NCBI GenBank assembly: GCA_037379345.1
Contig: CM074513.1
Span: forward strand, 35,956,885 to 36,020,884
Origin: Perna viridis
Taxonomy: Eukaryota
Direction of reading: 5' to 3'
DNA length: 64,000 bases
The notes beneath the pieces are model-generated. The model worked only from the letters and a program-made list of their open reading frames with translations, was not told the origin of the DNA and did not search any database. Position numbers and translations under genes: made by a program. This document shows, one piece after another, positions 1,474-53,600 of this stretch (the stretch's first letter is position 1; the number at the start of each line of letters is the position of its first letter).

Positions 1474-1598
1474 CCCGTATAATGAATACCTGTTCTTTGT
1501 TCTAATCACGGCCTCCCGTGTAATGAATATCCTGTTCTTTGTTCTAATCACGGCATCCCGTATAATGAATACCCTGTTCCTTGTTCTAATCACGGCCT
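1474..1598. repeat. Minisatellite, 3 copies of a 41-42 bp unit
   Basis: Unit CCCGTATAATGAATACC(C)TGTTCTTTGTTCTAATCACGGCCT. It accounts for the repetitive ORF 1327-1593. Confidence 0.9.
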
Positions 1599-3477: not shown

Positions 3478-3635
3478 AATATTAGTAGTTAAATTAGGAA
3501 AAAGTAAAGCATTGATTTTTCCTTTGTTTAAAAAGCTATATTTGCATTGTTATTTTTTTCTATATCATTATTGATGCGACATACAACAGTCGGAAAGTTT
3601 TGAATTTTAAACATCGAATTTGACTTTGTTCTTAC

Positions 3636-4132: not shown

Positions 4133-4754
4133 CTGTGAAATATGTGTTTAAAGACAAAAATCCAGTACTGAGTCTGGAAAGACTTTCTGCATTCAAATGT
4201 TTTATTTCTTCGAGGTACTATACATGAAATTACCTTTCTTAAAGAACAAATTAGTACGTATTTGAAATAGAGAACAAAACAAAAGCCTAAGGAAACGGTG
4301 TTTCCATTTGCAGTTTCAAGTATTGTTTTGTTGGTGCAAAAAAGTAAATATGGTAATAAAACATTTGGATCTTCCTATTGCATTGTCAGATATTATATAC
4401 AGTTTTGATATTGTATAACTTCATCTTGGTATAAAACTGCTGACTGAAACCACGGGGCAACTGGGTAAGAGAGCAGAACATCTTAATTTTAAAAGTAAAA
4501 ACGCATAGTAAAATAACAACACAATATTTGCACAGTTGACATTAATCTCAAATTATCCCTTGAGCTTCCACCAAAGAACGGGTAAAACATTTCAATCTAA
4601 AGGAAAAGTTACAATTGTAACATAATGCTCCTTTACTTTGTCGGTTTCTCTGAATACGATACTAAACCGAATAACATAATACTATATTAGTTAGGTTTTT
4701 CTTTAAAGTGACTATGTAGATGTACCGCTTTCAACTTGGTCGACAGTAAAAGTA

Positions 4755-6495: not shown

Positions 6496-6509
6496 GTGGA
6501 TATTATATG

Positions 6510-16761: not shown

Positions 16762-17974
16762 TAACAGTTTCCGAGCTGCGACATTTACATTATCAATAGG
16801 GAAATTATTTGAAAAGGTTATCCTATGTCGTATTCAAAACTATCTAGAAATATCTAAGCTAATCATACCTCACCCACTATAATATGGACCTGTATAGGAA
16901 CACGGAGCGATCCCAGCTTTATTCATATTTGTTCGTATTCATATCAATTTGACTGAACACAGGCTTCTAAGACTTGCTTCACTATTTATTAACTCGAAAC
17001 TAAGAACTGTTATATAATTAGGTTCGACCCCAATCAGACATGGCATGTGATTTTTAGACATTATATAATTAGTTTCGAACAACTTTTAGATGTTCGATCG
17101 AAGATGTTTCATAAGATCGTTGACATGCTTCCTGTCCACGCATCCGTAATAGTTTTATAAGGATGATGATGACCTGATCGTTTCAATGTTGGGTGGAGTT
17201 ACGACTGCCATGAACTCATTATCGTCCGATAAATGGGGTCGCCTCATGTTGCATTTAGCATAAAATGTCACAAAAATGTATTAAACTTTTTCGTATGATC
17301 TTTTTCACCACTTACTTATTACGACTTTATAGCAAATCAACCGCATAGTTGATAAATAAGTGTGGTGATTTTCGTGTGTTTGGTTTAAAATTAAGGTTCA
17401 GATTGTTCAAATTTTGATTTCTTTATGGAAAACGTTTTGACCAATTATGTCAACTGTTTGTCCAGTAGAAATTTTGTTTTGATGGTCAGTTGTACACAGA
17501 TTATTATGTTTTGTGTAAAATTTATCATTTTTTTTCAAATTTATCTGTGAACCAGTTGCTTATTTAGATGGAATACTTTGGTTCGCTGGGCACTATTTAG
17601 TCATAATTTTGTGTCAATACTTTCTTTCTAGGTCCCTTTACGACATTTTCCAAGATATAGCCAGAATACTTTATGAACTGAAATTTGATGACCGAATGCA
17701 TTCAAGATAGTCATTTTTAATCAACATATAAGCACGAAAATAAGTGATCGATTCGAAAATCAGTGCATGCAATCTCACAACAGTCCAGCTTACAAACTCG
17801 AAATAATTATTAAAACGCTATATCGAATATGATTTTATTGGGTTATTGGGTTATTATACCCATTTAATGTTACATTCATACCTACTCTCGTGATACTTTG
17901 TCTTTAGTGTCGTGTGGAGACGGTAAAATGTTTATACTTAAGATGTATGCTCTTATATTATTTCAGTTATTGGG

Positions 17975-18879: not shown

Positions 18880-19425
18880 TGTCTAACTGTAAAACACAGA
18901 TTTGATTTTGCATTCATTTTGGATATTTGTTTGAAAGAGTAATCAAGGTAATAAGATTCTAGCGGAAATCAAAAGAATGTATTCCAGGGATAAATACTAG
19001 ACATGGAAAACTGAAATACACAACAAAGAATATAGAATAATCAAAATAATACATACAAAGTAACACAAGTAAATGAGCAACTTGGGCTCCACTAAAAACT
19101 GGGAGCATGGACCAGGTACGCCGGTAGGGTAAGTATTGTGTCAACTGTAAACACAAATTAAATTCTGTCATGTCTTGTTTGTGATTGTGGTACTCTGTGT
19201 TCACTGTAAAACAGTGATTTGATTTTGACACCCTGTGTTAACTGTAAAACAGGGATTTAATTGTGGTACTCTGTGTTCACTGTAAAACAGGGATTTGATT
19301 TCGACACTCTGTGTTCACTGTAAAACAGGGATTTGATTTCGACACTGTGTTCACTGTAAAACAGGGATTTGATTTTGACACTCTGTGTTCACTGTAAAAC
19401 ACGGAGATTTGATTTTGACACTCTA
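18880..19425. repeat. ~36-38 bp minisatellite interrupted by a PLE family 1 insertion
   Basis: Unit ACTCTGTGTTCACTGTAAAACAGGGATTTGATTTYGAC, about 7 copies at 19140-19425 plus one degenerate copy at 18880-18912. Confidence 0.85.
18933..19133 (-). mobile_element. PLE family 1 3' fragment, truncated inside the RNA structure
   Basis: The minus strand begins CTTACCCTACCGGCGTACCTGGTCC and runs to the common terminus GATTACTCTTTC. Confidence 0.9.
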
Positions 19426-19932
19426 TTTCGACACTCTCTTTACCAGAGAGAAGATGTTGGGTATTACTCTAGTTTTGGACCTTTTTGGTTATGCAATGTG
19501 TTTACGACGAAATAAGATAAAAGTTGGATTTGTCTGTGGTTTTTGTTCTCTACAAATGTTAGGTCTTGTTATTATGTCCCTGAGTTTACAATGTGATATA
19601 TAAGAGATTCTCTTTGGCTTGGTCTCCTATGTGTTAATAGTGTAGTTCAAGTGTAGGGTTTTAACCCTCCATGCTTACCTTAGAACATAAATCAGGTTTG
19701 ATATCATCTGTAGAAATCACATTAGATCTTAAGTAGATCCGTCCACTGTAGAACTAAAGTTTTGTCGTGTATGTAGCCCAATTGAACAACAGATAACTTA
19801 AATCCAATAAGTATTCCGAATCCTAACAAAACCCTGGAACCATGGTCCAAGTGTGCCTAAATGGTTAGCACCATCTGATGTTCTAAGGACTCCCATTTCG
19901 TTGTTTATTTCATGTCCTGTAAGAAGAATGGT

Positions 19933-20766
19933 GAAAGAGTAATCAAGGGGACCAAGGTTATAGCGGTAATCAAAAGAATGTAATCCAGGGACAAAGACCA
20001 GACATGGAAAACAGACATACACAACAAAGAACATATAGTAACTAAAATCATACATACGAAGTAACAACAGCAAATGAGAAACTCGGACTCCACTGAAAAC
20101 TGGGAGCATGGACCAGGTACACCGGTAGGGTAAGCGTCCTCTGCTTTTCTAGAAACACCCGCCGAGTTGCTCATAAAAAGTGAAGTCCGGGGTAGACAAA
20201 CGAGGAAAGGAAAACTATGACTCGTTGAATAAATCAGTTTTCATGGTGCAGATGGATACACCATAACGATCCACGAGTTCATGATGATGACCATAAAACT
20301 TCTGTAGTGATGACATCAATCTTGTAGCAACATAACCCTGTTCCAGAAGCCTATTTGTTAGAATTCTAGCGCGATACAAAAAGTCTGCGTAGTTTCGGCA
20401 AGCTCTGGCATAACGTATGAGTTGTGATATGAACACTCCATACGCAGGTGCTGAAGGGATGTTGCCACAGAGGAAAGGAAAGTTGACAATTCTGAATGAA
20501 AAGTCATCACGTTTGTCGTAAAGTTTGGTGAATAGTTTTCCTTTACCATCGATTTCTAAGTGAAGGTCAAGATATGAGGCTGACTTCACGGTATCTGTAG
20601 TATCCTTTATCTCAAGTTCTTTGGGGTAGATGCGATGTATCAAATCCCCGAAATTAGGATTGTTTAAAGATAATACGATCATCTATATAGCGGAAACTGA
20701 GACTAAAGGATCTAGCTGAACGATATTCTTTCTTTCGGATCAGATCAGCTATAAAGTCAGCCTCAA
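19933..20766 (-). mobile_element. PLE family 1 (Naiad-like), longest copy: RT catalytic motif, thumb and 3' UTR
   Basis: EADFIADL..SFRYIDD(+1)VLSLNNPNF..IYPKELEIKDTTD..ASYLDL..LYDKRDDFSF.IVNFPFLCGNIPSAPAYGVFISQLIRYARAC..QGY..L..SLQKFYG.H. Stop at 20215 with no downstream GIY-YIG domain. Confidence 0.92.
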
Positions 20767-23700
20767 ACTACGAATAATAGAATACATTTTCTAATATTGG
20801 AGATTTCCACAACATTACTGTTGATAAAGTTATATGATGGCGACTTTTGGACTGATTACTTTAAAATCTTGAAGTTACATAAACCAGCTCCAAGAGTTTT
20901 TGTAACATGTTTAGCAAAATAACAAAAAATAAAGGATCAAAACCAAGGCAAAACTTGTGTTTGACACAAACCAAAACAAGACAAAATTGTGCATGAAAAA
21001 CCGCGGCAAGACTGAATTTGTATTCTACGGAAAACACGGACGACAAAAAGCAAGACAATGACAAACGTACAAAGATAATAAATAGCAAATATGTGTCCTA
21101 TAGATATTAAAGAGGGTTTATAGCAAGGTGAATTCCAACCTGTGCCCTAAAGAAATCACACGGGGCTAAAAATGCACGACTAAACATGTGTCCTACAGAA
21201 AACGAAGATAAAACAAGTATACCACAAAAACTATACAGAGTTATGAAATTGGGAATATAAAAAGAACTAAACAGAATCAAGGCAAAACTCGTGTTCCACG
21301 GAAATTACACTGGAATAAAATAGAGGCAAGACAAAACATATGTCCTACATGAATTACAGAGGGTTTAAACCATGCATGGTTTATATACACCCGAGGCGAG
21401 ATCTACCTCGTTTTTTACATTTGCTCAGAGTACTTAAAACTACTTGTGTCTTGCTTTCTGAGTTTTGTCCATGTCTATATCATTGTCCATAATATGCATT
21501 TGGTTAAGTCATTACTTGTTTTGTATGAATTATGAGACGTTTCGTTCGGCCATGTGTTAATGCTCCATGATTGTCTCTTGTAAGCCGGAATAAATTAGTG
21601 TGCACATATATTTAATCATCAACAATACTATATTTAAACTCAAACCTGTCTGACGAGAAATCATTCATTAAGGAATCAATTGTTCAGCGTTTTTAAAAGA
21701 ACAGTTTTATAAATAATCTAAATGAAATATCAGCTCCTGTCGGATCCTCAATCGTATAAACCAAGGTTTCATCAATTTTTGACACTTAACGCATTTCAAA
21801 AAGCAAAACTGACAGGCTAAAATGATTAATTATGTAAGCCTATCCATTTGTGTTTACTTTAACCATTACACATGCTGCTTCGGCTCCTCAGCATACCTGT
21901 AATATCTGTTTGGCTGACTTTACATAGCAGAGCATTGTCATCGAGACGAAATATGTACGGGTGTTTTCCCTAGATAAATATTTACAAACTTCATTTTGCG
22001 TTCTGTGATCTTTTTGATAATATATTTTTTCCTCGAAATGTCACTGTTTTAATGATTTTCTGTCCTTTGAACGTTTGCGGATTGCTATTTGGTTTCTCTA
22101 AACACTCGTGGTATTGTTTTATAATACATTGTGTCTGCTGTGTTCATATTGATAAGTAATTGAAGAACGACAAATGTTCGTTGTTTCTATCTATTTTAGA
22201 TGCCAACAATTTTCTCTTCGATCAGAATCTTTTCCATTGGTGGTTGTCAATAGCTCAAATAGTTAAAAACTGATTCGACGAAACGGAAAAGCTATAAAAC
22301 TAACCTTTTCTATAACTTTAGTTTTTCATACATATATATATATATGGCTATTTGACATTCATAAAATATCCATTGTTTTCTTTTTCGTTTGATACTGAAA
22401 CCGTTACAGCAAATTCCTCGGTATAGCGTAGTGGTAGAAGAAATATGGACATTTCTAATGGCATCTTATACAATTTTAAGGATGTTTAACTATATATCCC
22501 AGGCACTGATCTCTACTTTTTACTTTCTGCACTCCTTTATAAACCTATTCAGTTGGAACCGACTGCCTTACATTGTGTTTCGGGACTGTTTTAGATCTGT
22601 TTCCATGCTGTTTATAGATTTGGAAGATATATGGTTCACAAAGTTGGTCATAAAAAAGGATGTTTTAATTTTGTATCAGGGTATGAAAATAATGTATGTG
22701 CTCTGCTGTTAGTATTTCCTGATAATTTTCACTGAGAGTAATTTTAGTTTTACTGTACATATACACACTCTAGAAACCATCGAGCGAAAATAATGTGCAA
22801 CCCTTAGCAGGGAACTAACTCTCATTTGAATATTTTTTGTCCCAAATTATTGTAAAGAGGATTTATTTCTTTTTAATGAATCTTGTTTCTTCTATCGCAT
22901 TAAACAACAATAAAAGTGGCGTAAATTCAAGAATATATTTCGAAAGAAATTAAAATTGAAATGTGTTTCCGCATATTTGGCAGCCAAATTTCTTGTCGGT
23001 TTGAAATCTGTATATTAAAATGCAATGTCACGAGATGAGGTTTCTTATTGCATTTTTTTTCCACTTGCTGTGAGAAACGTAAAAGGACATTTCATACCGT
23101 ACAGATTGGTAGTTTTAATATCAATTCTGTCAAACCACAAGTTTATGAATCAAGACTTTGTTGGAAACCTTTAATTTTTAATCTTATTCAAATTCACATC
23201 CTTCGCATTATATAATTTTATACGATTCTCAAAGGTATGTTACTAAATACATGTATCGAATTTCATGCCCAGTGGGTCTTCACTTAGATTATTTGTCATT
23301 GAAACGTTAATTCTAGATACAACTAGGACATTATAAATAGGGATATAACACTATGTCCGTACATTACAGACTACCCATATATCATTGCCCCTAACACATC
23401 AAAACTATGTCTGACTTGTATAGGATTAACATACATGTATATATTTTAGCTTTTTTTGATACATGTATATATTTTAGCTTTTTTTAACTTCTGGATAAGT
23501 ACAGTTCTACTTAAATTTATTTCCAAAATACCATTCTCTGAAGTCACTGCAACTCTGATGACAACATTGTACATAAACAAAGATTGCTTTTGCATTGTGT
23601 TAAGACATTTAAGTTTCTTTCTGTGTAAGTTGCAAAGAACATAAAATTTTGTTTCAAATCAGCAAATCTGTATTTTTTTTTTCAGTAAATTAAAACAATT

Positions 23701-25849
23701 CAACATGTACATGTGTCAATTAACGGTGTTTGCGTCTTCCTGGTATGTGTTTTTAGGTCATTTGATGATAAACTACATGTTTGTACATCTTCGTCTTGTA
23801 ACGTGCGAGTATGTGATGGAAGAGCTGATTATACCGATTCGAGCGATTTTTCATCGAATACGAACAGACAAACGACAAAACCAACACATGTCTCTCACCA
23901 TTCTCTTAGTTGAGTGGAATAGGGCCAGTTCTATTGTATTTTATATGTGGTATTCCTTTCTTGTTTCCCAAGCTTTAAATACGTTATAACTACTGTGATT
24001 ATTGTCTGGATTTCACTCCCGTATGTTAAATGATATTTTAATAAGAGTCTATCATTGCTGCAAAATGTCAGTTGAATACGGAATGTAGGTAATGAATCCA
24101 TGTTTGATAGGCTTAGTGTTCATTTAGGTATACATTTTTTTTAAGTAGGACAAAATAAGAAATAAAGCTAGATGATTCTTTGTTGTAGTTGTGTCGCCTC
24201 ACGTCCCTGTACCCTATTTGTAATTATTGTCAGTGTTTGTTTGAAAAAAAAACTGATTTTCCGCTAACTTCCAATAAAACGTAAGAACCACAATGGACAA
24301 ACACTGAATTCTGACCATTTTGTTGTATTGACTGAAATGCTAGAATGCCGATATTGTCTGTTATTACATCTCGTGATCAATGTCATTATTGAATTTCTGA
24401 ATTAAACAGATGTGGTTCTTTGTTTTATGGTACTTTATTTTCAGATTGTTACAGTTAGTAGAAAGTGTATAGTGGATAGAAAAATGCAAAGAAGTCTCTA
24501 AAAAGTGTCTCATTGACAATCCACTATTGATTTACTGTCATATGTATAATAGTGTTAAAAATAAATTTCACGAGTATTAATTTTTGCGGTTTTCTAACCA
24601 CCGTGAAAATAGCGAAAATTAATACCTTTAAAGTATATTTACGAACAAGAAGAAATCGCGGAAAATGAATCGGCGCGAATATGGAAAAGACAGAACGTAA
24701 GTCGTGATTTAGCAGCGAAATTCAAATAAAGTCCCGAGGGTAGATTAATAATATAACTGGAGGTTTCAACATGATCTCTATTTTGTCGCTGTGTCATGTA
24801 AATGCGTTGCTTAATTAGGACTTTAACTATTGTTATCTATCGAGAATAAAAAAAAAGTGAGCCATTAGCTCGAATCTTATCTTCCTCAGAGATCCCGACT
24901 TAGATCACGCATTTGAACGAAACCAGGTGAACTTGATCAAAAAGGAAGAATCTCTTTCATCAGGTGCAATTAATTAGTTATTATCAAAATCGGTTTCAAA
25001 ACTGATATGTATTACATAATGACTTACAGACTGGGAGGAATTCTTGGTAGATATCACCCTTCAGATGCAGTTCTTGAGATAAACTTTTCACAAACCAAAG
25101 CCCAGAGGATACAGCTACTTAACACCAGTAAATCTCTCATTTTATATTTTGGTTACAGTAATGTAGTACAGTTTGCAGCTTGTTCATGGCAACAAAAAAA
25201 AACATACGCCTTTACACTGATCAATAATCAATTGTTATTATCATGTTTTCTAGTCATGTTTGTAAGAACTCCAACTTAGTTTTCATATTTGTTTTATATT
25301 TGGATGAAAAGAAAAAAACATACCAAACAGACATACTCAGCATAAAGATTCATTTCTACCCGACACTATTACCACTAAAACAAAATTACATATACATAGC
25401 ACACAAAATAACCAAGGTTGGCGATCAAAGCTTTTTTTGACATTCCACTCAAAAACAAAATTAGTAATACCCTCGTTGATAATATGTTTTTGAGTGGAAT
25501 GAAGAGAACATTTTTTGATGAAATCAAGTATTTAGGAGTATTTGCATAACCGAGAAAGACTGTTCTTCATTTGTATACACAAACTTGTTTTTGAACAGAT
25601 ACACATAGCAGTGACAATTGTCTGTCCTCTAAAATTAAAAAAATAAATATCAAAATCCGTGCATCGCTGATCTTTTGCCTTTATTCGTAACATAAACTAC
25701 ACAGTTATCCATACAAGCAACAATATATGACTAAATTGTCCATGTGAACACCATTTTTTTTCGAATCTTTCCATCAATGCTTAGCACTGTCAAAACTGGC
25801 GTTTAGAGGAAAAACAAACTAGAGGTCATGAAATGAAAATGGAACGAAA

Positions 25850-26310
25850 AATGCAACAATTATTTGGTGTTACTGTCTCCATTTCTATGCAGCAACAAAT
25901 TATTTGGTATTCTAAGCAGAACACATTATTTGGTGTTCTAAACAGCAACACATTATTCGGTGCTCGAAGCAGCAACAGATTATTTGGTGTTCAAACAGCA
26001 ACACATTATTTGATGTTCTAAGCAGCAACAATTTATTCGGTGTTCTAAGCAGCAACAATTTATTTTTTGTTCTATGCAGCAACACATTATTTGGTGTTCA
26101 AACAGCAACACATTATTTGGTGTTCTAAACAGCAACACATTATTCGGTGCTCGAAGCAGCAACAGATTATTCGGTGTTCTGAGCAGCAACAATTTATTTG
26201 GTGCTCTATGCAGCTACACATTATTTGGTGTTCAAACAGCAACAAATTATTCGGTGTTCTAAACAGCAACAATTTATTCGGTGATCTAAGCAGCAAACAA
26301 TGATTTGGTG
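25850..26310. repeat. 26-27 bp minisatellite, about 16 copies
   Basis: Unit AGCAACACATTATTTGGTGTTCTAAAC. It produces the overlapping repetitive ORFs at 25833-26320. Confidence 0.95.
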
Positions 26311-26935
26311 TTGTCGCCATTTATTACTTATTATTTAAAGTTTCTGTCTTAATTCTCTGTGTTTTACTGTCTCCATTTTCTGTCGGTTGTTTGTTCTTAC
26401 TGTCTCCATTTATATTTGTTATGTAATGTTTCTGTCGCTATTCTCCTTGTGTTATTTGGTTTTACTCTCGGACTGTACATTTTCTGCGTTTTATACCTTC
26501 ATCTTCTGAATGTTTTTTAGTGTTAATATCTCCATTTTTGTGTGTTGTTTAATGTTATTGTCTCTATTATTTGGTGTTGCAGTCTACATTTTCTATGTTT
26601 TTTATGGTTTTAAAATCTCCATTTTATATGTATTATTTGGTGTTAATATTTCTCCATTTTCTATGTACTGTTTTCTGTAAAAATATATCCATTTTCTATG
26701 TGTTATTTAGTGTTACTGTCTACATTTTCTATGAGTTGTTTGGTGGTAATATCTCTCTATTTTTTGTGCGTTATTTGATGTTAATATCTCCTTTTCTGTG
26801 TGTTGTTCGGTGTTAATTTCTCACTATTTTCTATGCGTTGTTTGGTAGTAATATCTCTCCATCTTCTGTGTGTTATTTGGTGTTACCGTCTACATTTTAT
26901 ATTTGTTGTTTGTTGTTAATATCCCCATTTTCTTA
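26300..26935. repeat. Degenerate ~33 bp minisatellite
   Basis: Unit approximately TTATTTGGTGTTAMTRTCTCCATTTTCTATGTG. Confidence 0.85.
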
Positions 26936-29458
26936 CTTCTATATTTCTCTATACTCTGAATGTAGTTTTATATGTACTTTTTAAAATATATATTTTTTTC
27001 AAACAAAAAGATCGTTGCCAATCAACTATAATTATCTTAAGTATGTAGATTTATCATGCAATTCAATAAAAAATTTCAATTTTGTCAAAGACTTTCATCT
27101 CTGTAAACCTTAATTGTTGTTGTTTTTTTTTTTGTTTTTTTTTTCATTTGCCTTTTTCGACTAATATAAAGATAATGTCGTCATTTGAAAAAAAAATGCA
27201 CTTAAAACAATTTAATGCAATCAAGATGTCTGTACATACATATGATAAATTGGAATAATTTGTCATTTACAAAATTCACACTCTGATCAATCCAGATCTT
27301 TATTCTGAAAGTCAGATATAATTAGTTACTTCATTGTAAAGCTAATATTACCAAACGAGTTTAATTGAATTTCCTCACAAATAAGGAAAGTGCATTGGAA
27401 TTGGAGAAAACTTTTTCAAATGTAATTGAGAAGAAGTTCCTTAAGATATTCCCAAATCAAAGTATGAAATAATAATTACAAATCAACTACGTGATGATTT
27501 ATGTCCCGCTGTCAGCTGCCGTGAATCATTCTATCGATTCCTTTCATAATCACCCGGTAGTTGCTTCTCCAGAATTTGCTGTTTATGCAAGTCGCTTTAA
27601 CAGATGGAAATATGCTTCAAAAGATACCATCACGTCCTTTTACTCTGTTTGATATGTCTGTAAATCTCGTTAAACTCTCGCATCAGAGGGAAGTAGACGT
27701 CTGAACGTGAGTGCAAATCTCGTATGCATCGAGAAATAGTGCTGTCTTGTTGTTTTCTCTTGTTTTGCCATTAACAATATTCTTAAAATCGACAAAAGCA
27801 GATTAAGTTTTTACTTCACGGAAAATTAACCGTCTGCACAAACCTGCAAATTTCCTATGCATGGTTAAGTAACGCTGTCTTGTTTTAAGCAATCATGCCA
27901 TTTACAAAGTCCTTAAAATCGACAAAATGCACATTTTATTTGCTTTTTGTCTTTCACTTCAATTAATTCTAGTTTAAGTTAGTTTATGCAAGTCGTTTGG
28001 CTGCATCAATCTAAGGAAATATTATACTTCCCACAAACGGAGTCAACCATCTGAACAAACATTTTATTTAGCAGGATAAATGAAAAGTGGTAAAGAAAAT
28101 AAACGGACGGTAGACATGCCGCCTGCTTTCTTTATAAAGAAAGTTGTTATAAGTTTGATTCATTGCCGAGTCTTTATGTTAGACTCACTCCTTTATTTTT
28201 GTCATTTGTGTTTTAATTTTAAGAAACCGCCGATCACTTTTTAAACCACTTAGAAACTTCAAAATTCAACGCTTTAAGTGTAAGTGCTTCCAACATGCTG
28301 TCTCCGTGTGTTTGTCTGGCTATAATGGTAATTTACGCCACAAGCCTCAACATTTGCGGAGTCTGTCGAGAAACCGTCATTGGTTTATGCTAGTTTTGTA
28401 GCCGTTGATGCCTTGTTCGAGTAGTTTACTTGTAAAACAACGTATATTTTAGACTGCTTGGGAACATAAAACCTTTACATGAACCTCTCATTAAAATATT
28501 CCTGGACAGGGTAAATTAATGACTGCAAGTAAGTTACATAATTATCAAGACGAAGATAAGCCTAACATAGCATTCCGTATGCAAATAAATTTGTTTCTTG
28601 GTTTGCTAGTGTGTGTGTGTGGTTGTGTGTTTGTGTGTGTGTGTCTAATAATCTCGAAGTGATAATTATTGTGGATACAAATCAAGCCGTAGATACCAAG
28701 AATTAAAGTGATATTAAAAGTCGTCGTTCTTTTTTATCTTTGTTTTATATGTTATATGAAAGCTGAACTGGTGCATATGATTTAATTTTAATGTTTCAAA
28801 TAGTATTTGAGAAACTTGGGTAAGGGTATTTCAGTTTAGCTGCAAATGCATATATGCTAATTCACATTACCCATACTATCAGTTTATATTAAATTAAAAC
28901 CCACCTGAACCCCTGGGTATTTTCGTGCCTTATCATGTTTGAACATCGCTGTAGGAGATGAACCCGGCTATTGAAATCTCGACACTTTATGAATTATTAT
29001 GTGTAATAAATGATAATACTGTTTCAATATAAGATTTTATTGTTTTAAACATGCCCTGCTATCACAACCCAAAAGAACGGTTGAAGTTTCTCGCCATGGT
29101 CCTCTTTGCCATTACTAGGCGAGTAAGATTGTAATACCGCGTGACTCCGAAACACTGGTGCAAGCAATATTTCTGTTGCCCTTTTCTTGTGCAACACTTG
29201 AATCTTAGACACCTAGTTACAAGTATGATAGCAAGCGTGTATGCAGAGAGTATTACTTATATATGACAATATAACGAGACGTCGTCAGCTCAGCTCTAAT
29301 ACATCTAGGAAATTAACTATGCCTGATGTGGTGTGATAAGTACATACTCAAAAGTATCATTTTCCTGAAGTCAATATTGAGGTGTTCGTACGGTCGCGTG
29401 TAAAAAATGTCAGATTTATCTAAGTTTTTTCTCAACATTTGTCAGCCATTTGCACGTT

Positions 29459-31329: not shown

Positions 31330-32031
31330 ACCTTTTTCTACCGATAAAAGGGACTCGCTCTCAAATACATATGTAAAGAATTAATACGTGCGGGTATCTC
31401 TCATCCTTTGTTTTACGGTAATGTTCTACACATGGTATGACATGGGTTGTGTCCTTATTGTATGACTTATGATGCACCGTGATTATCAACACCGCATGGG
31501 AAGAATTGGTCTTGATTTTACATACGATGGGGACATAACTTTTTTGTAGGTTTAAACTGGCCTGGAGCTGGCTGGCATGTCAAATAACTGCTAGTAGTCC
31601 TTAGTCTGTACATCTGTGTAATTGATATTCACTTTTTTATTTCCGTTGCAACAAGGGACTCGGATCTTTTTGAACTGATTTTAGGTGGGGTTAATTGTGT
31701 AATATTTTATCTACAGTGGCCAGATTTTAAAAGGGAGGTTATATGATAACGCCGAAGTTATTTTACCCTGCCGCATTTTTTAGCCTTCCCAAGTCGGTAA
31801 TTTCTGGCCTCTGTATGTCTTGTTTCGTTTTCACCTTAAGTTTATTTGTTGTTACTTGCGTTTACAGGGGCAACTCTTTCGCTGTACCAGTCTGTAATGC
31901 TGTTTGGGGCCAACTGCAGCCTGTCCTGTGGTATGAGGGTTTCCTCGTCTTTCATTGAAGACCACTGGGCTGACATCCCGGAAGGGTTGTTGTCTCTTTG
32001 ACATATACAAAATACCTATTTTCGTTATATT
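31330..32031 (+). mobile_element. PLE family 2 3' fragment
   Basis: Collinear with the reverse complement of 4755-5530 (LIRAGISHPLFYGNVL, then UTR). Each copy carries a deletion the other lacks. Confidence 0.85.
31718..31809 (+). ncRNA. Putative circularly permuted twister ribozyme, decayed copy B
   Basis: Perfect closing stem GGCCAGA/UCUGGCC; AAGG-GAGGU..UUA-CCCU-GCC-GCAUUUUUUA-GCCU-UCCCAAGU-CGG. The L4 loop is intact; the A following the scissile bond is changed to U (31764). Confidence 0.55.
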
Positions 32032-35575: not shown

Positions 35576-38488
35576 CATTCATTACCTGGAATTGTTTAAG
35601 GATATCTCCACGCTTGTGATATCATGCTACCCTTTATGCTCACCGCTAGAAACAAAGTAATTTTGGATAATTAAAATTTCTAACATTTTTAATGAATCAA
35701 TGAATTCAATTTTAATTTCACACATTTTCCTCTTGGTTCGCAACAAATAGTTGGCTCAGAGCAGTTCATGTTTGATCACTTTAATTGGTCAACACACTTC
35801 TAACTGTCATCCTTCCGATTCTGATTTACCAATATTTATAGAATGGACTACCAGTCAATCTGTAAAACAAACACACTAAAATCGAGAGCAAGTAAACCTG
35901 AATGGGGAAACATTCGTAGATTGAACAACAAACCCTGTAGCATCAAAGGGACTTCAGCCGAGGTAAAAAGGGTTGAAAAGGAATTGACATAATGCAGAGC
36001 TACTAAGCCGTTTGTACAAATAAAATTTTCAGTGCCCAAACCATAAATTAGAAGCACGACCCTTTCAACGCCTTCCTTTGTTACAATTACGCGAGATTTC
36101 TCTTCAAATAGACTATATTGGTTTTCCATTTACTTGTGTTTGAAGACGAGAAATGAATATAAACATAGAGATGGTACATGATATAATTAGATCCGGATTT
36201 CTTTTCATACAATCACGAAATTGTCCAGTGCAACGACAGGAACTATAGAAAAGTTCATTCGGGGAGTAGAACCGATTTAAATTGATGAAATACTTCAATA
36301 AAATTCACAGCTGGAATAAGCAAAAACCTTGTACATTTTCTCAACGACACCCTTTCTTTAAACGAAAGGAAATTACTTGTCATACAAGATTTTATAATCC
36401 GAGTAAAAGAAACTCACCAAAGGATAATTAAACACAGACTATTTCACTCTTAGTAGAGAGTTACGTTGGAACAAAGATGAGAATTTGGTTCAACAAACAG
36501 AGAATAACAGAATTTTCTCAGACGGCATAGAGGTTTTTTTTTTTATAAAACTTCGACTTTCATTCCTGACTATTTCATTCCTGACTATTTACAAATAAAA
36601 TCAATAAAATAACACATTTAATATGCACTATATTTTCACTTAGTCCATATTCGGCTACTGTTTCATACAGCCACTGCTTTCTGCTAATAAAGAAAAAAAC
36701 TAAGTTCACAGATCTGCCAACCTTATCACAACATGAATGAACAATTATTTGTTCAGGAAATAAAAGGATTTTGCAGTTGATAAACTAAAAAAAAATATTT
36801 TTATTTCATATAAATGGTAGATTTCATTGTTCAACAACACCAACTACTAGCCGACAATAGATTATATGTATACTCTTGCTAGACATACACATTGGAAGAC
36901 AAAGTAAAATAGCTATGGAAAAGTTAGATATCTTACCTTTCGGGAACCACAGAAAATTTTAACAGAAAAATAAATGAATGAAGATGGCAAAATCGTGTAA
37001 AAACAGTACTTGATACCAGAGGTTGAAGGTAAAACTTTAAAAGACAAATGGTCATGGCTCTAAGCAAAGAAATGGTTTAAAGGTGAGGCGAGTTTTCTGG
37101 TTTTAAGAACATGGTTTAATCTACAAGTTTAGCCTAATCCAGCGATAACTTGTTGTACTGAGATCACTCGAATTACACACGTCTCCCTGATCTGTACCAT
37201 AGAGGGTCTTATATTAGTTCGTAACTATAGAAATAAGCCGTATCTTCGTAACGTCTCGTGTGGGGGCAATTGTGGAAAACCGTCAATAACAATAGATTCA
37301 TAGCATACCACATGTACACCTGATGGAGTGAGGAGAAACAGTTGCAATGGTTACGTAATAATTCCCCATAAGAACCTCAATAATGAACACGTCTCTAAAC
37401 ATACGAAAAAATCAATTTTGACGCGTTAGGCTTTAGTTTTACACCCTTGTTAACCATCCAGACTCAACTTAGTAAACAAAACTTATACTTTGTACGGCGA
37501 CTAACTAATCTAAACTGTCATTCGCTATTTGATAAATTGGATTATATTTACAAAAATATGTAAAATTAAGCTGTTAAACCTGTATTATGCGTTATATTCT
37601 TTCATTAAAGATATCCGTTTATGTGACAACTGAGGAATTCTGAAGAGTAATTCATCCTGATAGATCTACCCTATAGCCTATTTGTGGTTGTGTCAGATTG
37701 ATTCTCAATTGTCTCAGATAAAAGTTCATGTCAACCTTTTCTTGGTTGTTTAGTTACTTGGTACAGTCATCTTTTAATTTCTGTTTCCGTCTACGTTGAA
37801 TGTATTTGATTCGTTTGTTTCTTTAAATTGTCACATAATTCTCGTTATGTTATCAGATATGGTGTCGTGAAAGTAATAATGTTTGAAATTGTTACACTGT
37901 ACTGGTATAATCCTACTCGTTGGTATACCTTTTTTATATAACTTCCTTGTGTTTTGTCCGTAGTTAAAGAATGTTTCTCCTGATATGTTGTGGTGCTCCC
38001 ATGTGCTAACACTTTCTTCGATCAGTGCCATTTTGTGTCTGGCGTTGTTTGTAATGTTGTTTATTACAATTCAATGCTGGTTTACACTGTATAGGTCAAT
38101 AAATTCCTGATTTTTATTCTTCTTTCTGTGTTGCCAATGAATATCTTCTGTTTAAGCCTAAGAATGAAAACAATTGCTTCATAGGATTCATGTCAGAATT
38201 TAGACAACAAAGTTTTTCACAAGTGCTTTTTTACTCCTTAGACTTCTTAAAACCCTGAAACCAAGGTAATTTCACAGACAACAATATTTTATAATCGGGG
38301 TTTTCTGAAATGATTGTGTTAATTTATATACATAACGAGAACCCTTCTGTGAAAAAAAAAATCATTAGTACCAATGCATGTATACATGTGACATGATACC
38401 TCACAAAACCCTATATTTCTTAATCAAACATATACATTTTGTATCTCGGAATCAATCAAATCATGGTCTATTACTGTTTAGGAATTCC

Positions 38489-39052
38489 AATGACTTTTCA
38501 TTCACTTTCCTTTCATCGGTGGCAATATCCCTTCAGCACCTGCGTATGGAGTGTTCATATCACAATTCATACGTTATGCCAGAGCTTGCCGAGACTACGC
38601 AGACTTTTTGTATTGCGCTAGAATTCTAACAAAAAGGCTTCTGAAGCAGGGTTATGTTGCTACAAGATCGAGGTCATCACTACAGAAGTTTTATGGCCGT
38701 CATCATGAACTCGTGGATCGTTACGGTGTATCCATCTGCGCCATGAAAACTGATTTGTTCAACGTGTCATAGTTTTCCTTTCCTCTTTCGTCTACCCCGG
38801 ACTTCACTTTTTATGAGCAACTCGGCGGGTGTTTCTAGAAAAGCAGAGGACGCTTACCCTACCGGTGCACCTGGTCCATACTCCCAGTTTTTAGTGGAAT
38901 CCGAGTTTCTCATTTGCTTTTGTTATTTTGTATATATGATTTTGGTTACTCTATGTTCTTTGTTGTGTATGTTTGTTTTCCATCTCCGGTCTTTGTCCCT
39001 GGATTACATTCTTTTGATTACCGCTATAACCTTGGTTCCCTTGATTACTCTT
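38489..39052 (+). mobile_element. PLE family 1 3' fragment (RT thumb and UTR)
   Basis: GNIPSAPAYGVFISQFIRYARACRDYADFL..QGYVATRSRSSLQKFYGRHHELVDRYG, stop at 38772, structure at 38813-38913. Confidence 0.92.
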
Positions 39053-42000
39053 CCAAGCAAGTTTAATGGGTCTACGTCTACTCGGACTTTGATGAAGTTT
39101 TGATTGCCTAGAAATGACAGCAGTGCATGCATTTTGAATTCAGTAAACTCATTCAATGCAGTGTTTCTTAGTTTATTCGGGCTACAATTTCAGCAATCTG
39201 GTATAATTGGCGCCGGTCTTTCATTCAGGTTTCGTCCTATTAAAAGAGACCCAGTTCAGCAGCAAATGTGCAACTGAAAGCATTCTTTAGACCGATGCCA
39301 ATTACGAAATAAGCAATTGCTCCATATTTAGGTAAATCTACATTATTTGAACAGTAAATATCTCTGCAAGCATAAAAACTATCTGTGTGTTTATTAACTG
39401 TGACAATTTAATACATAGGTCACTGGGCATGGTTGACTGCGAACATTTGTCTTCAGGTAACACACCAGGTGCTTAATTAGTTTAAGTTCCTTTGAAGAAG
39501 GTATTTGTACAAATATGTTATGGTATTATAATTGTCGAATAAAGCGGTGTTGCGCTGGATTATCACGAAATCTGAGAGATGATCCCGACTTAATAAGATT
39601 CACGACAGTGGCCACTGCAGCGTATATATACACCGTTGAGCTAAAAAATTTCGTTGAAACTAAAGTATGGATGCTTCCAGTACGATCATCTTTGGGCGCG
39701 TATTGTCATGACCGTCTGAATTTAGTGTCTCTTGCCAGATTGTTTGTAACTATGTATAAACTAATTTTCTACGAAAAATAACTGTTTTTTCCGTTCGCCA
39801 TTTCTCTCTTTTTTTTAACATTAATTACTTTGCAATAACACACAATATCGTGCACCTGTGTGTGACACGCTAAAGAAATAGACTTGAACAGCTGAACAGA
39901 ATTAATGTGATGGATCAATTTCGTATATTTCTTCCAAAAAAAACCCAAAAAAACACATGACTGTCAGAGTCTTGGCTTTGGGATAACAAGTATGAAAGCC
40001 GAAAGATCACACATTTCAAAGGCAAAACCATATGTCTTCACTCGTATAATATAAAACAATATGAAACCATAAAGCCTGATTAGTTCTTGGTGATTCTGAA
40101 ATGTATACTGTTATGAAATACATGACAGATGTTCAAGTTAAGCAAATATGCGTCGGTAAAGACTCAGGAAACGTATGTAAACGGTTTAGTACTTCACGAA
40201 TCGCTGGAAGAACCATAAAACTTTCTGATGAGTTACTTGATAATATAAGCGTCATGATAGATTGGAAGGAACTATAACTTTGATCAAGTTTGGCAGATGC
40301 GTGTTCTATATTGAAACATTTAATTTGAAAGAGACCATTTAATTGTTGTGATTTCTGATATAATGTCGTTAATCAACGAATCGTACGCTTTGATATAGCT
40401 AAGTTCTCAGTGCCAACCTTGTACATAATTATTTCATAGTCTTTCAACCCCCCAAAACTTTTAACTTGCCTATTAATTGCATTTTCATTTTACCATCGGT
40501 TCGATCAGGTGTGAATCGGTTTCCAGACATGCCAAAACTCTCTGGTTTTGCCATGACAGTCGAGTCATCTAGTGCCTCTTGTATGTTACGTTAACTAGAC
40601 TACGATGTAGAGTTTGGATTCGTACCAGGTTTCGTCTTTAAAAAGGGATACTCCATGCATGTACACGTACCGTACAGATAATTCTTTACAGAATACTGCA
40701 ACTTCATCTTGAAAGATATTTATAAGAACATTAGTCAGTTTGTCCTATAGAGAACATTCATGAGCGCAATGCTTCTTCGCGACAGGTTACTGTCACCGCC
40801 TGCATTTTTGCAAAAACATCTTGCCATCTAAATATATAAAGCATAATATTTTTTTTATATTTAGGTATTTCAACTTTCTTCTCAGCCATTTTAGTAGTTT
40901 ATAGCAGAGATAGCTGTCAGTTAATTTCAAAATTAATCAGTTTAATAGATTGTATCAATATTAAAAACTTAATAGTGCTCCTAAGATGCATTTTTAATGC
41001 TTTTTATTTTCGGATGCCTCCTTATCTGACACATCGACACTTCACCCTTTTCTTGACAAAAACATTATATAACTCATGTACAACGTCGATATTGTTTACA
41101 TGTACAATGTTACATTTGAGAACAAGTCAAATTGTTTTCTTTTCTTGCCCTATTGTAAAGTAAATAATTTTAAAATATTGACAAATACTTCAAAATATAT
41201 ATATTTATTTTTGGTCGTTCCCTCCGTGGGACTCGTACTGCTGTGACATCTATGGCAACACCTTTAATTTATAAAAATTTTTGAATTATTATTTTGGTTA
41301 AGTTTTAAGTCTTAAACAATGTCTAGATGCACCGATTAAGAAATAACATTGTAAGCTTCTATAGTATAGATCTGCAGTACAAGATGACAGACGAATGACG
41401 GATGGCCCAGACAAAACTAGGTGTAAATCATATGTTTATCATTAACCATGCAGTGATTGATCGGTGAAAGTAACTTGTTCCGCATTAAAAGTACATGCAC
41501 CCAGCCTGGAATTATTTCCAGAAAACCATTGGCATTGAATTTGGTCTACAGTTCTTTTATATTTACCCCTTCTCCGTGAAAATGGACAAAAAAACGGAAT
41601 GTAACATGTACCATAAGCGGCAGCATACACATTGGCATGATTCGAAATTAGTGTATCCGAAAACGTAAAAAAAAACAGTGACACTTTTTTTCTACAACTA
41701 GGCGCTTAATTCTAAGAGTCAGGTATGCTTATTATTCTTTTTGTTTTTTGTTTTTTGGTATTGTGATATGCTTCGATCACTATAAACTACACTTGTTATG
41801 TGCCTTACCAGAGTGCTACGTTTACACTGGTTCTATTGTTAGGAAGTTGTGCTTACAATTAAGGGTATAGTCAACTCAAATATCCTAAACACAACCTATA
41901 AATAAAGTATTTGATAAAAATCGCCGCATTGATTTTTAATGATAAGTTGTATTTTTGTTAGAAACTGGCTAATGTTTAATATCATGGCGTGGTTCACATT

Positions 42001-47647: not shown

Positions 47648-50600
47648 TCATGATGGTATGGATAATAAAACACATAATAGCACTGAAATAAGTAGTATCC
47701 TTGATGTATACCAAGGGTTAGTCCAAACTGACAATGCACTACTTCTAATTGGTAAATCGGTTCGATTGCCCTGAGTTTTGCTTAGTTCTGGGTTTAATTC
47801 TATTAGGTCCTGCCATGCTTGATAAGCCGCCGCTGTGAAATTCTCATCACCCGTTGTTAAGAGATCAAAAACACAAGAATCGAAGTAAAAATCCATAACA
47901 CTAGCATCACGGCATATTTTAATCGCTCTGTTTAATCCCATTTTTCCTAGATGTCCTTTGTTTTGCACCTCACTGAAAAACTTTGTGTAATCAATTCTCT
48001 CATTATTTGGACATCCTTGAACACACAATTCAAGATTGTCTTTTATTTTACTGGAATTCAAAACTTCTTCTGGCATTTTTATGGCAAATGTAAAATATCG
48101 TCCTATTTGTTGCACTTTGATAGTTGTGTCTATATATCGCAGATAAATTTCCACTTTTTTACCAGGTTCTTTCTCAATAATTTCCACACTTTTTTCGGGA
48201 CCATAGTGTGTCTGTCCTGATGAGAAGGAACCTGGCAGATTGTCTGTTTGAGCTGTATACGTAATAAACTTTTCTGATGCACAGTCTTCATTTTTCTTAA
48301 TGATCACTGTAAGCTGAAAAAGAAATGGAGAGAAAATGAAATATCAACATCACAAAAGCAGCTAAATGTATTACGATGATAAAAAATAGGGATAATTGCT
48401 TTCTATGTACAAATGGCTAAAAGCTAATTTTGTCAAATACCCTAAGGAATAGAAATTCACCAAAACAAACCATAAAATCCCCCTCCACTACTAAGAATTT
48501 CAGTTTCTTTCATTTTTGTCATTTTTTTTACTTATTTAACTTGGAAACTGGATTTAAAGGTTTCAGCAGTGACTAGATTTTTGACTGCCCTTCAAAGAGC
48601 ATGTAGCAAGCATGTCTACATGTAAATGATATATAACCTACATGATACATGTACATATATTTGGGTATGTCAAAAGAGAGAAGAAATTTAGACAAGACAG
48701 TCAACAACTACCTATGTTTTCCTGTTTAGTTATTACAGTCTTTTTGACCTTTAGTCTATTTTTAAGTTCAAACAAACAATGATTTGGGAATTTGTTAAGA
48801 TTTATCTTATCATTTCCACATACCTTGGTAAGGTTTAATACATGTACATGTATTTGTAAACTCCAAAATATTTGTCTTTTATCAGACTGCCAAAAATGAA
48901 AATTGCATCAACATATAGATAAATGACCTGATGGCCATAAAGACTAGCAGGGATACACCTACTCCACGACTCATCTATAAACTTTTTATAAAAAAGTGAG
49001 AACTGCTACTTCTTAAGGATATTCCACTTTTACAGTGATGGATCAAGGGGGCTTGGGGGGCAGGGGGTGGTGGGGGAAGGGAATTGGAGGCCCCTGTTTG
49101 TTGGAAAAATATGTTAATTTCAAGGGAACTTTTGGCAAAGCAAGTAATAGCCTGGAACCCCTCCTTTCCATCTCTAGATCCATTACTGTATTACATGTAC
49201 TTGTACATTACTATCTGTATCAAATATTCCCAGTGCTTTAACTTTTGCCAGCCATTCAATACATTCTTTAACTTAAACACTTTACTTCAGAAATGTACAT
49301 TTAACTAATCATTTTTCTCTGTTTCTAAAGCATATACATACATGCACTTACTTTAGTTTTTCTATGTTTATCAAATATTTGGCAAAGTTTATTAACTGTT
49401 TTAGTAAGTCAAGACCTAAACTAGTTTACAAGACACTGTACATGTGTAGTTCAACTGACTTCAGTGAAATTACAGATTTTCCAAAATTCGGAGATTTCAC
49501 TATCAGTATCTAGGCAAGAAATACATGTAAATGTATGTGCATATTTACTACATACCTCTCTAGAGAGACCATCTAATACCTTTAGAAATAGTACAGTGTA
49601 ATCCCCATTTTCAGGTTAAGAGGTTACTTTCCCCCTTGCCCTACATGTACATGTACTTAACTTGTTTTGACATAACAATGGTTAAGTGAGTATAATCCCC
49701 CTAAATATCTTGAACCATGTCTAATGTATATGCACTGGACAGATGACTGTTGTAAATACTTGTTTAAATCATTTATGGTAATTAATTCTACTCCTTCGGT
49801 GTCAGTGTTGTCATGTACACACCTTTACATTAATACACATGTGTACACACAAAATAAACTACATTGTAAATATTCTACAAGTTTCTCACATTTTATAGAC
49901 AATACTGAAAACTAGTACAAGTAGGGAATTTCAAAATATGAAAGTCTAGATCAGTTATACATCTTTAAACTACATGATACTAAATATATGTTCACTGGTA
50001 CTATACTGTATATACTAAATAAAATATGTTCTATCTTACATGTAGGACCTCTTATAAAATGTTTCAATTTTAGAGTAAGAAATACATGTACAATGTACAT
50101 GCACTGTCAATTTGTTATACTTAAGCATGTATCTGCAGTCTGGTAGAAAAGGGTAGATGGTCAAATTTGTCAACTTGGGAAAATCATATTTACATATGTA
50201 TGTACAGCAAAACTTGTACATATATATGACTTGGTTGTAAAATAAATGCTTTAAATGGTATAATAATGATTTATGTCATGGAAAAAAACACACAACATGG
50301 ATTTCATTTTGAGAACACTCTTCACTGTAGTAACATCATTTTTACCAAGATCAATACCCACAGATAAACTTTTGGTACAGCATATTTTACTGAACACAAA
50401 CCAATACCCCAAAACATTGTCAAAAAAAAAAAAACTTTTATAAAATATTTTAATAACATACATAAAACCTTCATTAAGTAGCTACATTTATATTATATCC
50501 CCTTCTCATAAAGCACATCAGTCTTTCTATGCAATTCATAAACCTTATAATAATTTCCAAAATAAATCTAGCTACAATGAAAGTGCAGTTTTTGTCTTTT

Positions 50601-53600
50601 AAAGATGTTTATCCTCCACTCATTTTCTTCAGTACAATGTATGTTATAAATTGTAATGTCAATGTACACATGAAGACTGAATACTGGAAAAAATGAATTG
50701 TCTTATGAATTTCAAAAGTAGACAAAGAGTGGGTGTATACATCCATGTACATGTATCAATATATAATATCATTTATTGCTAAAAAAATCTAAATGTCATT
50801 GCTTTTTAAGATATTTCACAACTTATCAATTTAAAACATTCAGATTCAAAAACTTACATGCATGTGTTCAAAATGCTCAAATCAATCTCAGCCCATGGTA
50901 TATGAAGTTCCATGGGTAAGAATTGTTGGAACTTACGAATTTTATTCTTACATTGTAGATCCCTGTTAACTTTTAAAAAATACATGTACATGTATGCACT
51001 AAGACACACATGAAATAAAAAATAAGATTATGTTACATGTAAGGTAGTGTATCTAGGACCGTCAAGTAATATAAAAAAAAATCATAACATCTTAACCCAG
51101 GATGTTAAAAAACTAAAAATCAAAGCAAAAACAAAACATTGATACTACACAAAAGGTTAACACCTTCATCTAGTGTGTAGTAAGTGTATAATATGTGTGT
51201 GTTAAAATCTCTGGCAAGGCTGTGTAGTTTAATTTTACAGATTGCTAGATTTATGTTCATTAAACATTTTATACCCATTAATGTATTTTAAACTTTGGAG
51301 AGTAGTGTACTAAGTTAATCCTAATATAACTGAATTTTACAATGTGTAGAGGTAAACAAAGACATGAAAATCCATTCATCTTGTGTTTGACCTAGAAAAT
51401 GGATGTTTATCATATCAACACTAACTTATCCAGAGATTTTGTTTGAATAAGAAATATAACAGTGATCTAAAACTTAATATAAGAATATTGATGTGAGTTC
51501 ATGTGTGTACATATGGTCATTGAAAAAGTATTTTATTAAAATTGGTTTTAAACCAATTATGGAAATCAGTCACTCCTAGTGAATATTTCATGTACTATCT
51601 ACAAACTTCACTGTACATACAATGTTGCTTTAGATGTTGGGTAGAATTGTGTTATTTGGAAAATAAAAAACTAAAAAGACATAAGATGTACATGTTCATT
51701 AAATGTACACGAGTAATGGTACAGTACCTGTACTTTCCCATCTATTACATGTATATTGTACATTTGTACATCAAGTACACATACTTCATTGTACATGTAC
51801 ATTTGTACATGCAAAAATATACAAAAAAGCATCTTAAGTCTTTTTTTTTTTTATATTTTTAGTTTTTGTAATAAACATATTCAGGATGAAACAAATATGG
51901 CATGAACAAACGTAATGGTTGACATCTCGTATTTTCAAAATCTTTAATTGTTGTTTAAACTTTGTTTTCTGAGTTGATACATGTACAATGTACATGTACA
52001 TATTTTTACATGACTACAAATGTTTACATATACAAAGTCATTAAGAGAAATGGTAAAATTAGTCTAACCAGAAATTACTACATATATTCTTGTAAGGTTG
52101 AGAATCTCACTGAGAACACTAAGTTTAAGCTGCATGGTTCTAATAAGACAACAAAACTTTTTTCATGTCTTGCGATATTCTGGATATACTAATCATCTGC
52201 TTTGGGCACTGAGTTCAATATTATGAGCTGGATATAATGTGTGGCTTTGATTTTTAAAAATAATACACTGGTATAGTGCATGTAAAATGTTGAATATAAT
52301 ACATACATGGCATACAATATACATATAAATGTTACACATGGTTCAAAACTTTGTTGTAAAATGTGTGCAACATGTTGAGCAACAATCGCTTTAAACCACC
52401 ATCAAATTCTAAACATGCTTCATTTCATAAGAAATTATTGTTTTCTAGTATGCTCTTTGTGGTAACTTAGCTCTTTTGCATTTTTTTTATGAAGGTGTAA
52501 CAGCTTTCACTTTCAGATAATTGTTTTCATTTGAAATGGAATAAATTCATAAGAAACTGTATAAAGAACCTAATTATACATGTATATGTCATGTAATATA
52601 CATTTTGTATGTACAGACTGTAGTATAAATCTGAAACATCTAATCAAATACTTCTTACATGGAGGCTAAAAAAAAATATGTGTGTTTCCTGTTACCCTAC
52701 ATACCCTAGTTTTCTGTGCCTACCCTGAACGTTTTATGGCCATTTTGGCTATAGTACTGTTAGTCTTGACTGTTTCCCCATTAACTCAATGTAAAGTGTT
52801 TTTAAAAAATAAAATAATTACCGGTGCACCTGGTCCATGCTCCCAGTTTTTAGTGGAGTCTGAGTTGCTCATTTACTTTTGTTACTTTGTATGTATGATT
52901 TTAGTTACTTTATGTTCTTTGTTGTGTATGTCTGTTTTCCATGTCTGGTCTTTGTACCTGGATTACATTCTTTTGATTACCGCTATAACCTTGGTTCCCT
53001 TGATAACTCCTTACTACCTACCCTATTTCGTTCATGTAGGTATCAGGAAACAAAACTACTAATTTGTTTTTTGCCATAACAAAAATAACAAGATATGATT
53101 ACCTTGCTTGTAGCAGTAGCTGCCTCACTTTTTATCACCCGATCATTTGTAACTTGAACTGTCAAATGTTTATTGTCTACAAGAGCCCAAGCACCCTCTA
53201 CTTTACAAGTCTGAAAGTCCTCATGAAACGTCCTCAAATGAGGATCACCAAATAATCCACACTGTTTATATTTCTGCTGTCCGCTAAATGAACACATCCT
53301 ATCATCTCTTGGTGGAAGAGGACCTACAACCTTCATTGTATCCTGATTAAACACTTTGGCTGCTGGGTCAGCTGAACAACGATGTCGACGCATGTTCTCT
53401 TTCAATCCAGCAATAATTCCATTATAAGTCAGATCAGATATGCAGTATCTTCTCTGCTTTGTTAAACAGTCTATATAAGTCCTGAGAGAAATACAATGTG
53501 GTTTTTCAGCTTGTTGTGCAGCTATAAGTGTCACTTTTACAGTCCCTTCCGCATCTTTTGCTGTACTAAATAAAGCTTGACAATGAGCAATATCACATGC

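Follow-up and report, generated by a model that had tools for sequence, protein, structure and literature searches.

A decayed twister-like motif, with two palindromes predicted to stand in for P1 in its family, in the tail of a Naiad retroelement of Perna viridis

The described RNAs closest to the motif analysed here are the type-P5 twister, a class reportedly treated by Roth et al. in 2014, and the minimal or palindromic type I hammerheads of Penelope-like elements, which are said to be the subject of Lunse et al. in 2017. With the type-P5 twister (RF02684) our motif shares the block order, GAGGG, UAA, GC, the L4 loop UCCCAAGY, P2, P4 and two pseudoknots, whereas it lacks a P1 stem, carries two tandem palindromes in its stead, combines P3 with a long P5, and scores under the family cut-off. 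With the Penelope-like hammerheads it shares the position in a pseudo-LTR, the replacement of a helix by a palindrome and a predicted dimer (PMC4209133), but it belongs to an unrelated ribozyme class and has two palindromes instead of one. A twister core with a weak or missing P1 is also shared with the Perere-3 variants of Schistosoma, which likewise lie in a retrotransposon (PMC8501958), and with truncated twisters found at the 5' ends of RTE elements, described as work in preparation (PMC7761336). The twisters of RTE-type LINEs lie at the 5' end and have P1 completed by the target site, whereas the present motif is permuted and lies in the 3' UTR/pseudo-LTR of a Penelope-like element.

Selenoprotein Naiads are characterized by GIY-YIG, CxC, DKA, RT, in-frame UGA codons at cysteines and a SECIS after the ORF, and the absence of hammerhead ribozymes is named as a notable difference of Naiads from other Penelope-like elements, in which ribozyme function is described as open (PMC8557442). 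Naiad_Scon and Naiad_Mmer of that paper have this protein layout, in-frame UGA and SECIS and, by eye, the motif described below; no ribozyme is reported for them in the available portion, and the word 'twister' occurs 0 times in its text and supplement as available. A literature search with thin coverage of subscription journals returned no twister in a Penelope-like element and no palindromic twister. Type-P1 twisters have been tested and bivalve candidates listed (PMC11662667), and these candidates may bear on novelty.

The window, by which we mean the whole stretch of 64,000 nucleotides analysed here, has about 33% GC and contains two copies of the motif, referred to as copy A and copy B. 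Their features, together with those of selected relatives and of the surroundings, are listed in Table 1.

Table 1. Features of the two copies, of related loci and of the rest of the window (window positions unless a locus is named).
Feature	Sequence	Position	Strand	Remarks
Copy B: decayed twister-like motif, type-P5 block order	window	31718-31809	+	from letters; 28.3 bits, E 5e-8 (outside-relative model; E rough)
P5 closing stem, 5' arm GGCCAGA	window	31718-31724	+	7 bp with UCUGGCC 31803-31809; intact in B, broken in A
GAGG, copy B	window	31735-31738	+	predicted general-base G at 31735; part of pseudoknot 2
P1 region, copy B	window	31739-31763	+	family: two tandem palindromes, 8-10 nt each; both destroyed in B
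Predicted cleavage site U^AA, copy B	window	31763-31765	+	between 31763 and 31764; reads UUA
P2 5' arm, GCC (pseudoknot 1), broken P3, damaged P4, intact L4	window	31766-31798	+	from letters, host contigs and model
GCC (pseudoknot 1), copy B	window	31770-31772	+
L4 UCCCAAGU, copy B, intact	window	31787-31794	+
Naiad ORF-end remnant (C-terminal extension after RT thumb)	window	31333-31431	+	tblastn to L004 protein: 54% over 35 aa, E 2e-6
Decayed SECIS remnant	window	31459-31525	+	limits approximate; aligns to SECIS-scoring stretch of L004; without its own Rfam hit
Whole copy B: 5'-truncated, internally deleted Naiad fragment	window	31333-32031	+	motif about 220 nt before 3' end
Copy A motif	window	4990-5086	-	62.7 bits, E 9e-21 (same model; E rough); UAA, P3, P4, first palindrome kept; both pseudoknots and P5 damaged
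Whole copy A: broken RT, ORF end, SECIS remnant, 3' module	window	4755-6603	-	70% DNA identity over 1.3 kb to L002-L004
SECIS-like hairpin	L004	3562-3626		about 55 nt after stop
Intact family motif	L004	3817-3919
Intact family motif	L011	1279-1378
Intact family motif	L007	2157-2256
Third fragment of the twister-bearing family	window	17897-17961		75-80% to its 5' body
Second, younger Naiad family	window	19932-20803, 18934-19133	-	82-95% between copies
Second, younger Naiad family	window	38482-39055, 9290-9661, 52819-53012, 6584-6712	+	82-95% between copies
RGM (repulsive guidance molecule) gene, exons	window	47651-53651	-
Two arrestin-domain genes in tandem, exons	window	10565-11784, 3630-4138	-
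Tandem repeats	window	25840-26950		units of about 27 and 33-35 nt
Tandem repeats	window	19184-19424		38-nt unit
Tandem repeats	window	1455-1599		41-42-nt unit

The original prediction had described copy B as an independent insertion of a twister-bearing element, and the letters that it quoted for this stretch are all present. Copies A and B align in three blocks at 76-91% (4755-5527 with 31335-32031), their flanks are unrelated and their internal deletions differ, and they are thus separate insertions, as had been stated. The reading of the damage needs correction in places. Copy B does retain UCCCAAGU in L4 and the closing stem, and GAGG is kept, but the fifth G of the family's GAGGG is replaced by U (31739), so that pseudoknot 2 is hit too; the change of UAA to UUA and the broken P3 were rightly recognised as losses, whereas three positions of P4 are changed (G missing after 31786, A to G at 31796, G to U at 31798) where a single one had been given. 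Copy B forms three of the four P2 pairs, with one mismatch, and two of the four P4 pairs, while pseudoknot 1 is intact and pseudoknot 2 is one G short. Copy A reads UAA and GAGAG, with intact P3 and P4, UCCCUAAU in L4 and a broken closing stem. The complementary damage of the two copies is no special signal, being expected from any two independently mutated copies; among the differences listed, there are 26 positions at which copy B departs from the family letter, and at 19 of them copy A retains it, as independent decay predicts.

A covariance model made only from six relatives outside the window gave 24 matches on the 64 kb, in which copies A and B (Table 1) were followed by a next best match of 9.2 bits; the Rfam scan of the window and of both copies gave no twister match. 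Energy folding, which is uninformative for a pseudoknotted RNA, gave P5 plus non-native stems for copy B (z -2.6) and a z of -0.4 for copy A. In copy B the predicted general-acid A is lost to U (31764). This A-to-U change abolished activity in five of five natural twisters, and activity was lowered by damage next to L4 and in pseudoknot 2 (PMC11662667). Because copy B carries the general-acid change together with damage at both of these places, it is almost certainly a mutated, inactive twister-like copy in the tail of a Naiad.

The broken reverse transcriptase upstream of copy A matches Naiad proteins, and 11 metagenome loci (referred to by L numbers) were fetched by protein alone, through an alignment of relatives of its C-terminal end. 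The ORF of L002-L004 runs from an N-terminal GIY-YIG through CxC and DKA to a C-terminal RT, of which the window copies hold fragments of the RT and of the ORF end only. In L004 the features that define Naiads were all found, namely GIY-YIG at the N-terminus, a CxC linker, DKA, and RT as the last domain with no endonuclease after it. Each of L002-L004 has four in-frame TGA codons, one of them eight residues after DKA, and SECIS_1 scores of 28-32 bits, under the cut-off of 35, were obtained in 6 of the 11 loci (L002-L005, L007 and L008), the window having a remnant only. The 3' module is a pseudo-LTR, since in L002 and L008 it continues into the 5' body known from L003 and L004; a pseudo-LTR arising from partial tandem copies and 5' truncation, both typical of the Naiad clade of Penelope-like elements, are thus present, the latter in both window copies. 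We therefore assign copy B to the 3' UTR/pseudo-LTR of a Naiad, probably of selenoprotein type. The six loci with a SECIS score are probably selenoprotein Naiads, with a C-terminal extension after the RT thumb, and exact searches of the available supplement of PMC8557442 with their core motif gave no match. A word-based protein search with the 50-aa ORF end returned no match, the Rfam search found no hammerhead in the window or the 11 loci, and no RNA records containing the stretch of copy B were listed.

All nine loci that reach the site (L009 and L010 end before it) have an intact core, in six measured loci 313-364 nt after the ORF stop; the predicted protein P0132, from another copy, reads through the UTR with residues that fit GAGGG. 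The type-P5 order P2(3')-GAGGG-P1-UAA-P2(5')-GC-P4-L4 was found in these nine loci and in both window copies. Sixteen core pairs, from P2, P3, P4 and the two pseudoknots, were scored in six distinct relatives (the near-duplicates L003, L005 and L008 being omitted), and 96 of 96 cells were paired, with G-U, G-C or A-U in pseudoknot 1 and G-C or A-U in P3. The nucleotide detail of the pseudoknot pairs follows crystal structures. Their naming follows PMC11662667, and the role of the predicted general-base G is taken from PMC8501958. Covariation in the core is weak, since 12 of the 16 pairs are invariant and 25 of 500 shuffles reach the score, the six loci amounting to about four independent families. 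P5 forms in six of six relatives with differing sequences. L006 aligns to positions 1-58 of the 58 of RF02684 with GAGGG, UAA, GC and GUCCCAAGC matched, at 23.1 bits (E 0.0039), and does not reach the gathering score of 37.6 bits. As neither P1 nor the score cut-off is attained, we do not file the family under RF02684 and call it a twister-like variant. Nine of nine loci and, by eye, five of five published consensuses with the motif in the available supplement retain the catalytic letters, namely the scissile A, the second A and the general-base G. From the intact core we infer that the family very probably self-cleaves at U^AA.

The state of the family in the host was assessed by placing 3516 and 2982 contigs from two DNA runs, together with 673 and 667 raw reads from two RNA runs, on positions 31650-31910 at 80% likeness; contigs are not equivalent to copies, and agreement among the loose ends was 0.5-0.8. 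A is the majority letter at 31764 (depth 2018/3126 with 16 contigs in X1, 1512/1830 with 21 contigs in X4), and host contigs have A at 31796 in 93-94% and G at 31798 in 90%. Among the loose ends listed, the consensus has P3, P4 and L4 intact (153 and 131 contigs before 31799; 207 and 198 before 31787), GAGGG is followed by two palindromes and then UAA in 45 contigs of X4, and GAGGG with the first palindrome is found in 62 reads of the RNA run X17. This majority is conservative, because the reference is the damaged copy B and placement is biased toward its letters. UAA, GAGGG and CCUG-UCCCAAGU-CAGG, which the original prediction had put together from two copies, were accordingly the majority letters in host contigs and reads, and none of UUA, GAGAG and UCCCUAAU appeared as consensus there or in the nine of nine informative relatives. 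The supposition of a canonical source element thus holds for the core, whereas 'canonical' is too strong for the whole, which has no P1 stem and scores under the Rfam cut-off. Depth summed over the flanks exceeds the depth of the contig identical to copy B by a factor of thousands; depth is not a copy number, but this excess suggests that the Naiad family carrying the motif is very large.

The RNA runs came from other individuals, and reads at least 99% like copy B numbered 0 of 673 and 1 of 667. In the raw RNA reads neither starts nor ends pile up; since copy B is too diverged at the core, the depth there is only 3-8 reads per strand. One expressed subfamily (62 reads of X17, at the loose end behind 31731) carries GGGA in place of GGGG in the 3' arm of P2, so that an A-C mismatch adjoins the catalytic loop. 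Behind P5, most relatives have a GT donor-like hexamer (window 31813-31818), and a polypyrimidine-AG acceptor-like site lies behind the end of the pseudo-LTR (about 3682 in L002); a 5'-UTR intron as in Penelope and Chlamys-3 could be imagined, but the reads lend it no support. A splice donor directly after P5 found no support, as RNA depth does not drop and no listed loose end falls there.

The main point was missed in the earlier reading: P1 cannot form as a stem, and two palindromes are found instead. No consecutive pairs occurred in four registers in eight of eight sequences, which rules out a canonical P1. The 21-23 nt between GAGGG and the cut contain two palindromes of 10 nt and 8-10 nt in a fixed register in six of six relatives, and the host family adds the palindrome variants GUGAUCAC and AAAGUACUUU. 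The palindromes total 18-20 nt (shuffle p 0.0001-0.001 each), a sum of 18 being reached by 104 of the 63,978 22-mers of the window. They are complementary in 53 of 53 cells, and 0 of 500 shuffles reach their score when kinship is ignored. Three of the nine pairs change on both sides, including both central pairs, which are AU or CG in the first palindrome and AU, UA or CG in the second. Folding of each palindrome into a hairpin is disfavoured, because the central bases covary and yet cannot pair within a hairpin, and it was rejected on computed energies also: self-duplexes (-15 to -20 kcal/mol) are 14-19 kcal/mol more stable than hairpins (0 to -1.5 kcal/mol). In three published consensuses the second palindrome is odd, with one unpaired centre, and could form a small hairpin (by eye, in the supplement as available).

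The covarying palindromes point to pairing between two RNA copies, and it is probable that two copies do pair in this way, most simply the two pseudo-LTRs of a tandem transcript. In the proposed mechanism, the twister in the element RNA would cleave at U^AA, the palindromes would supply P1 in trans from a second RNA copy, most simply the other pseudo-LTR, and cutting would thereby be tied to tandem transcripts, with unit-length element RNA released. For the whole of this, we lean towards a likely inactive copy B in a family that keeps the twister core, likely cuts at U^AA and has P1 replaced by the predicted palindrome pairing. Its strictest form, an obligate-dimer twister of bivalve Naiads in which the role of P1 falls to two intermolecular helices of about 10 and 8 bp and only tandem pseudo-LTR copies cut, is put forward tentatively as a model. 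It is by analogy with the dimeric Penelope hammerheads that palindrome pairing might tie cutting to tandem transcripts and release unit-length RNA, and we regard this step with some doubt. The hammerheads of other Penelope-like elements have a palindromic helix III and, as dimers, show weak cleavage (PMC4209133). On the other side, if two helices joined two P2-closed loops, the two RNAs would become interlinked, an obstacle to folding. The cut RNA would not be a plain template, as the copies in the genome continue past the cut site and share a common 3' end. For a Poseidon element, mutation of the hammerhead left in vitro insertion unaffected, and none of the reads ended at the site (PMC11167929).

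The alternative that survives best, though we judge it unlikely, is that the monomer cleaves without P1 and that the palindromes have a role separate from catalysis, in which they pair element RNAs or their cut 3' ends for RT packaging or for template jumps that give tandem and inverted insertions. P1 has been reported as dispensable, with imperfections fully tolerated (PMC11662667), and inefficient cleavage without it is cited as well (PMC8501958), so that cutting may do without a dimer; furthermore, the second palindrome reaches just as far as the predicted cut, so that cut 3' ends would finish in both palindromes, and a different Naiad motif in which the twister core is absent also has two palindromes. 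However, the palindromes stand in a fixed register relative to GAGGG and UAA, at exactly the place at which P1 stacks on the core, and the base immediately before the cut often has no partner, a state that catalysis would require; both observations fit palindrome pairing in place of P1 better.

That different motif belongs to the second, younger Naiad family of the window (Table 1), whose 3' UTR holds, within a long stem, palindromes of 10 nt (20155-20146) and 6 nt (20126-20121), with no Rfam hit; two of its window copies are 5'-truncated inside the motif. By eye, several consensuses in the available supplement of PMC8557442 (Naiad_CGi, Sglo, Olur, Tgra and Pmar) also show it in their tails, with other palindromes and without the twister. 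It is a candidate for an undescribed dimerising RNA or ribozyme.

For copy B alone, it may be asked whether it was silenced by selection after insertion in a host transcript, and this we consider quite unlikely. Changes are some 2.5 times as dense in the core of copy B as in its flanks (about 15/67 against 17/194 in a hand tally among the differences listed, Fisher p 0.008 with indels), and copy A shows an excess too (12/66 against 14/191, p 0.017, among the differences listed), which is inflated by three to four alignment artefacts. With substitutions only, the p value for copy B is 0.056; moreover, one change would suffice for silencing, no host gene is shown over copy B, and the core, rich in GC and CpG, lies in an AT-rich genome. 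The excess may therefore reflect the GC-rich core or selection against cleavage, and the neutral decay assumed in the original prediction is borne out in part, the core excess with indels speaking against it.

A non-cleaving structural element derived from a twister, serving as a protein, splicing or stability signal with palindromes that are small hairpins or DNA binding sites, would account for the low Rfam score, the missing P1 and the copying of the element through the site. We hold this to be very improbable, since the catalytic letters named above are kept throughout the loci and the published consensuses, and since the letters of the palindromes change while self-complementarity stays, the adjacent central bases included, which is a misfit to a protein site. 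That the likeness to twister arose by chance from picking bases between two copies can be dismissed: copies A and B have no Rfam hit and loose patterns do match by chance, as in eight viral contigs, but majority letters and outside relatives are canonical, and these eight matches, rejected as candidates and serving as a negative control, have no closed P4, no palindrome of at least 6 nt and no Rfam hit. Viral contigs otherwise gave neither an exact match nor relatives, and the prokaryote genomes searched for the motif yielded nothing.

Among the 11 bivalve Naiad consensuses of PMC8557442, inspected by eye in the available supplement, five (Naiad_Mgal, Bpla, Mphi, Scon and Mmer) have the same motif near the 3' end, with two palindromes; P2, P4 and the two pseudoknots show compensatory changes among them, a stronger covariation than that within the six loci. 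The final 600 characters of CGi, Sglo, Olur, Tgra, Pmar and Mcor did not show the motif, and short exact terms gave nothing convincing in non-bivalve Naiads. In Mgal the motif lies beyond the end of the close relative Mcor and may be an attached module.

Copy B itself is a fossil of the motif. The presence of a twister-like motif at the same position in Naiads of mussel and clam type suggests that in these elements the ribozyme was swapped and not lost, and that palindrome pairing arose twice in unrelated ribozyme classes. If true, a twister with two palindromes would add to the natural architectures a new one, which Rfam overlooks. If the obligate-dimer model holds as well, these Naiads would contain the first twister in Penelope-like elements, a convergent stand-in for the dimeric hammerheads, in thousands of copies per genome.
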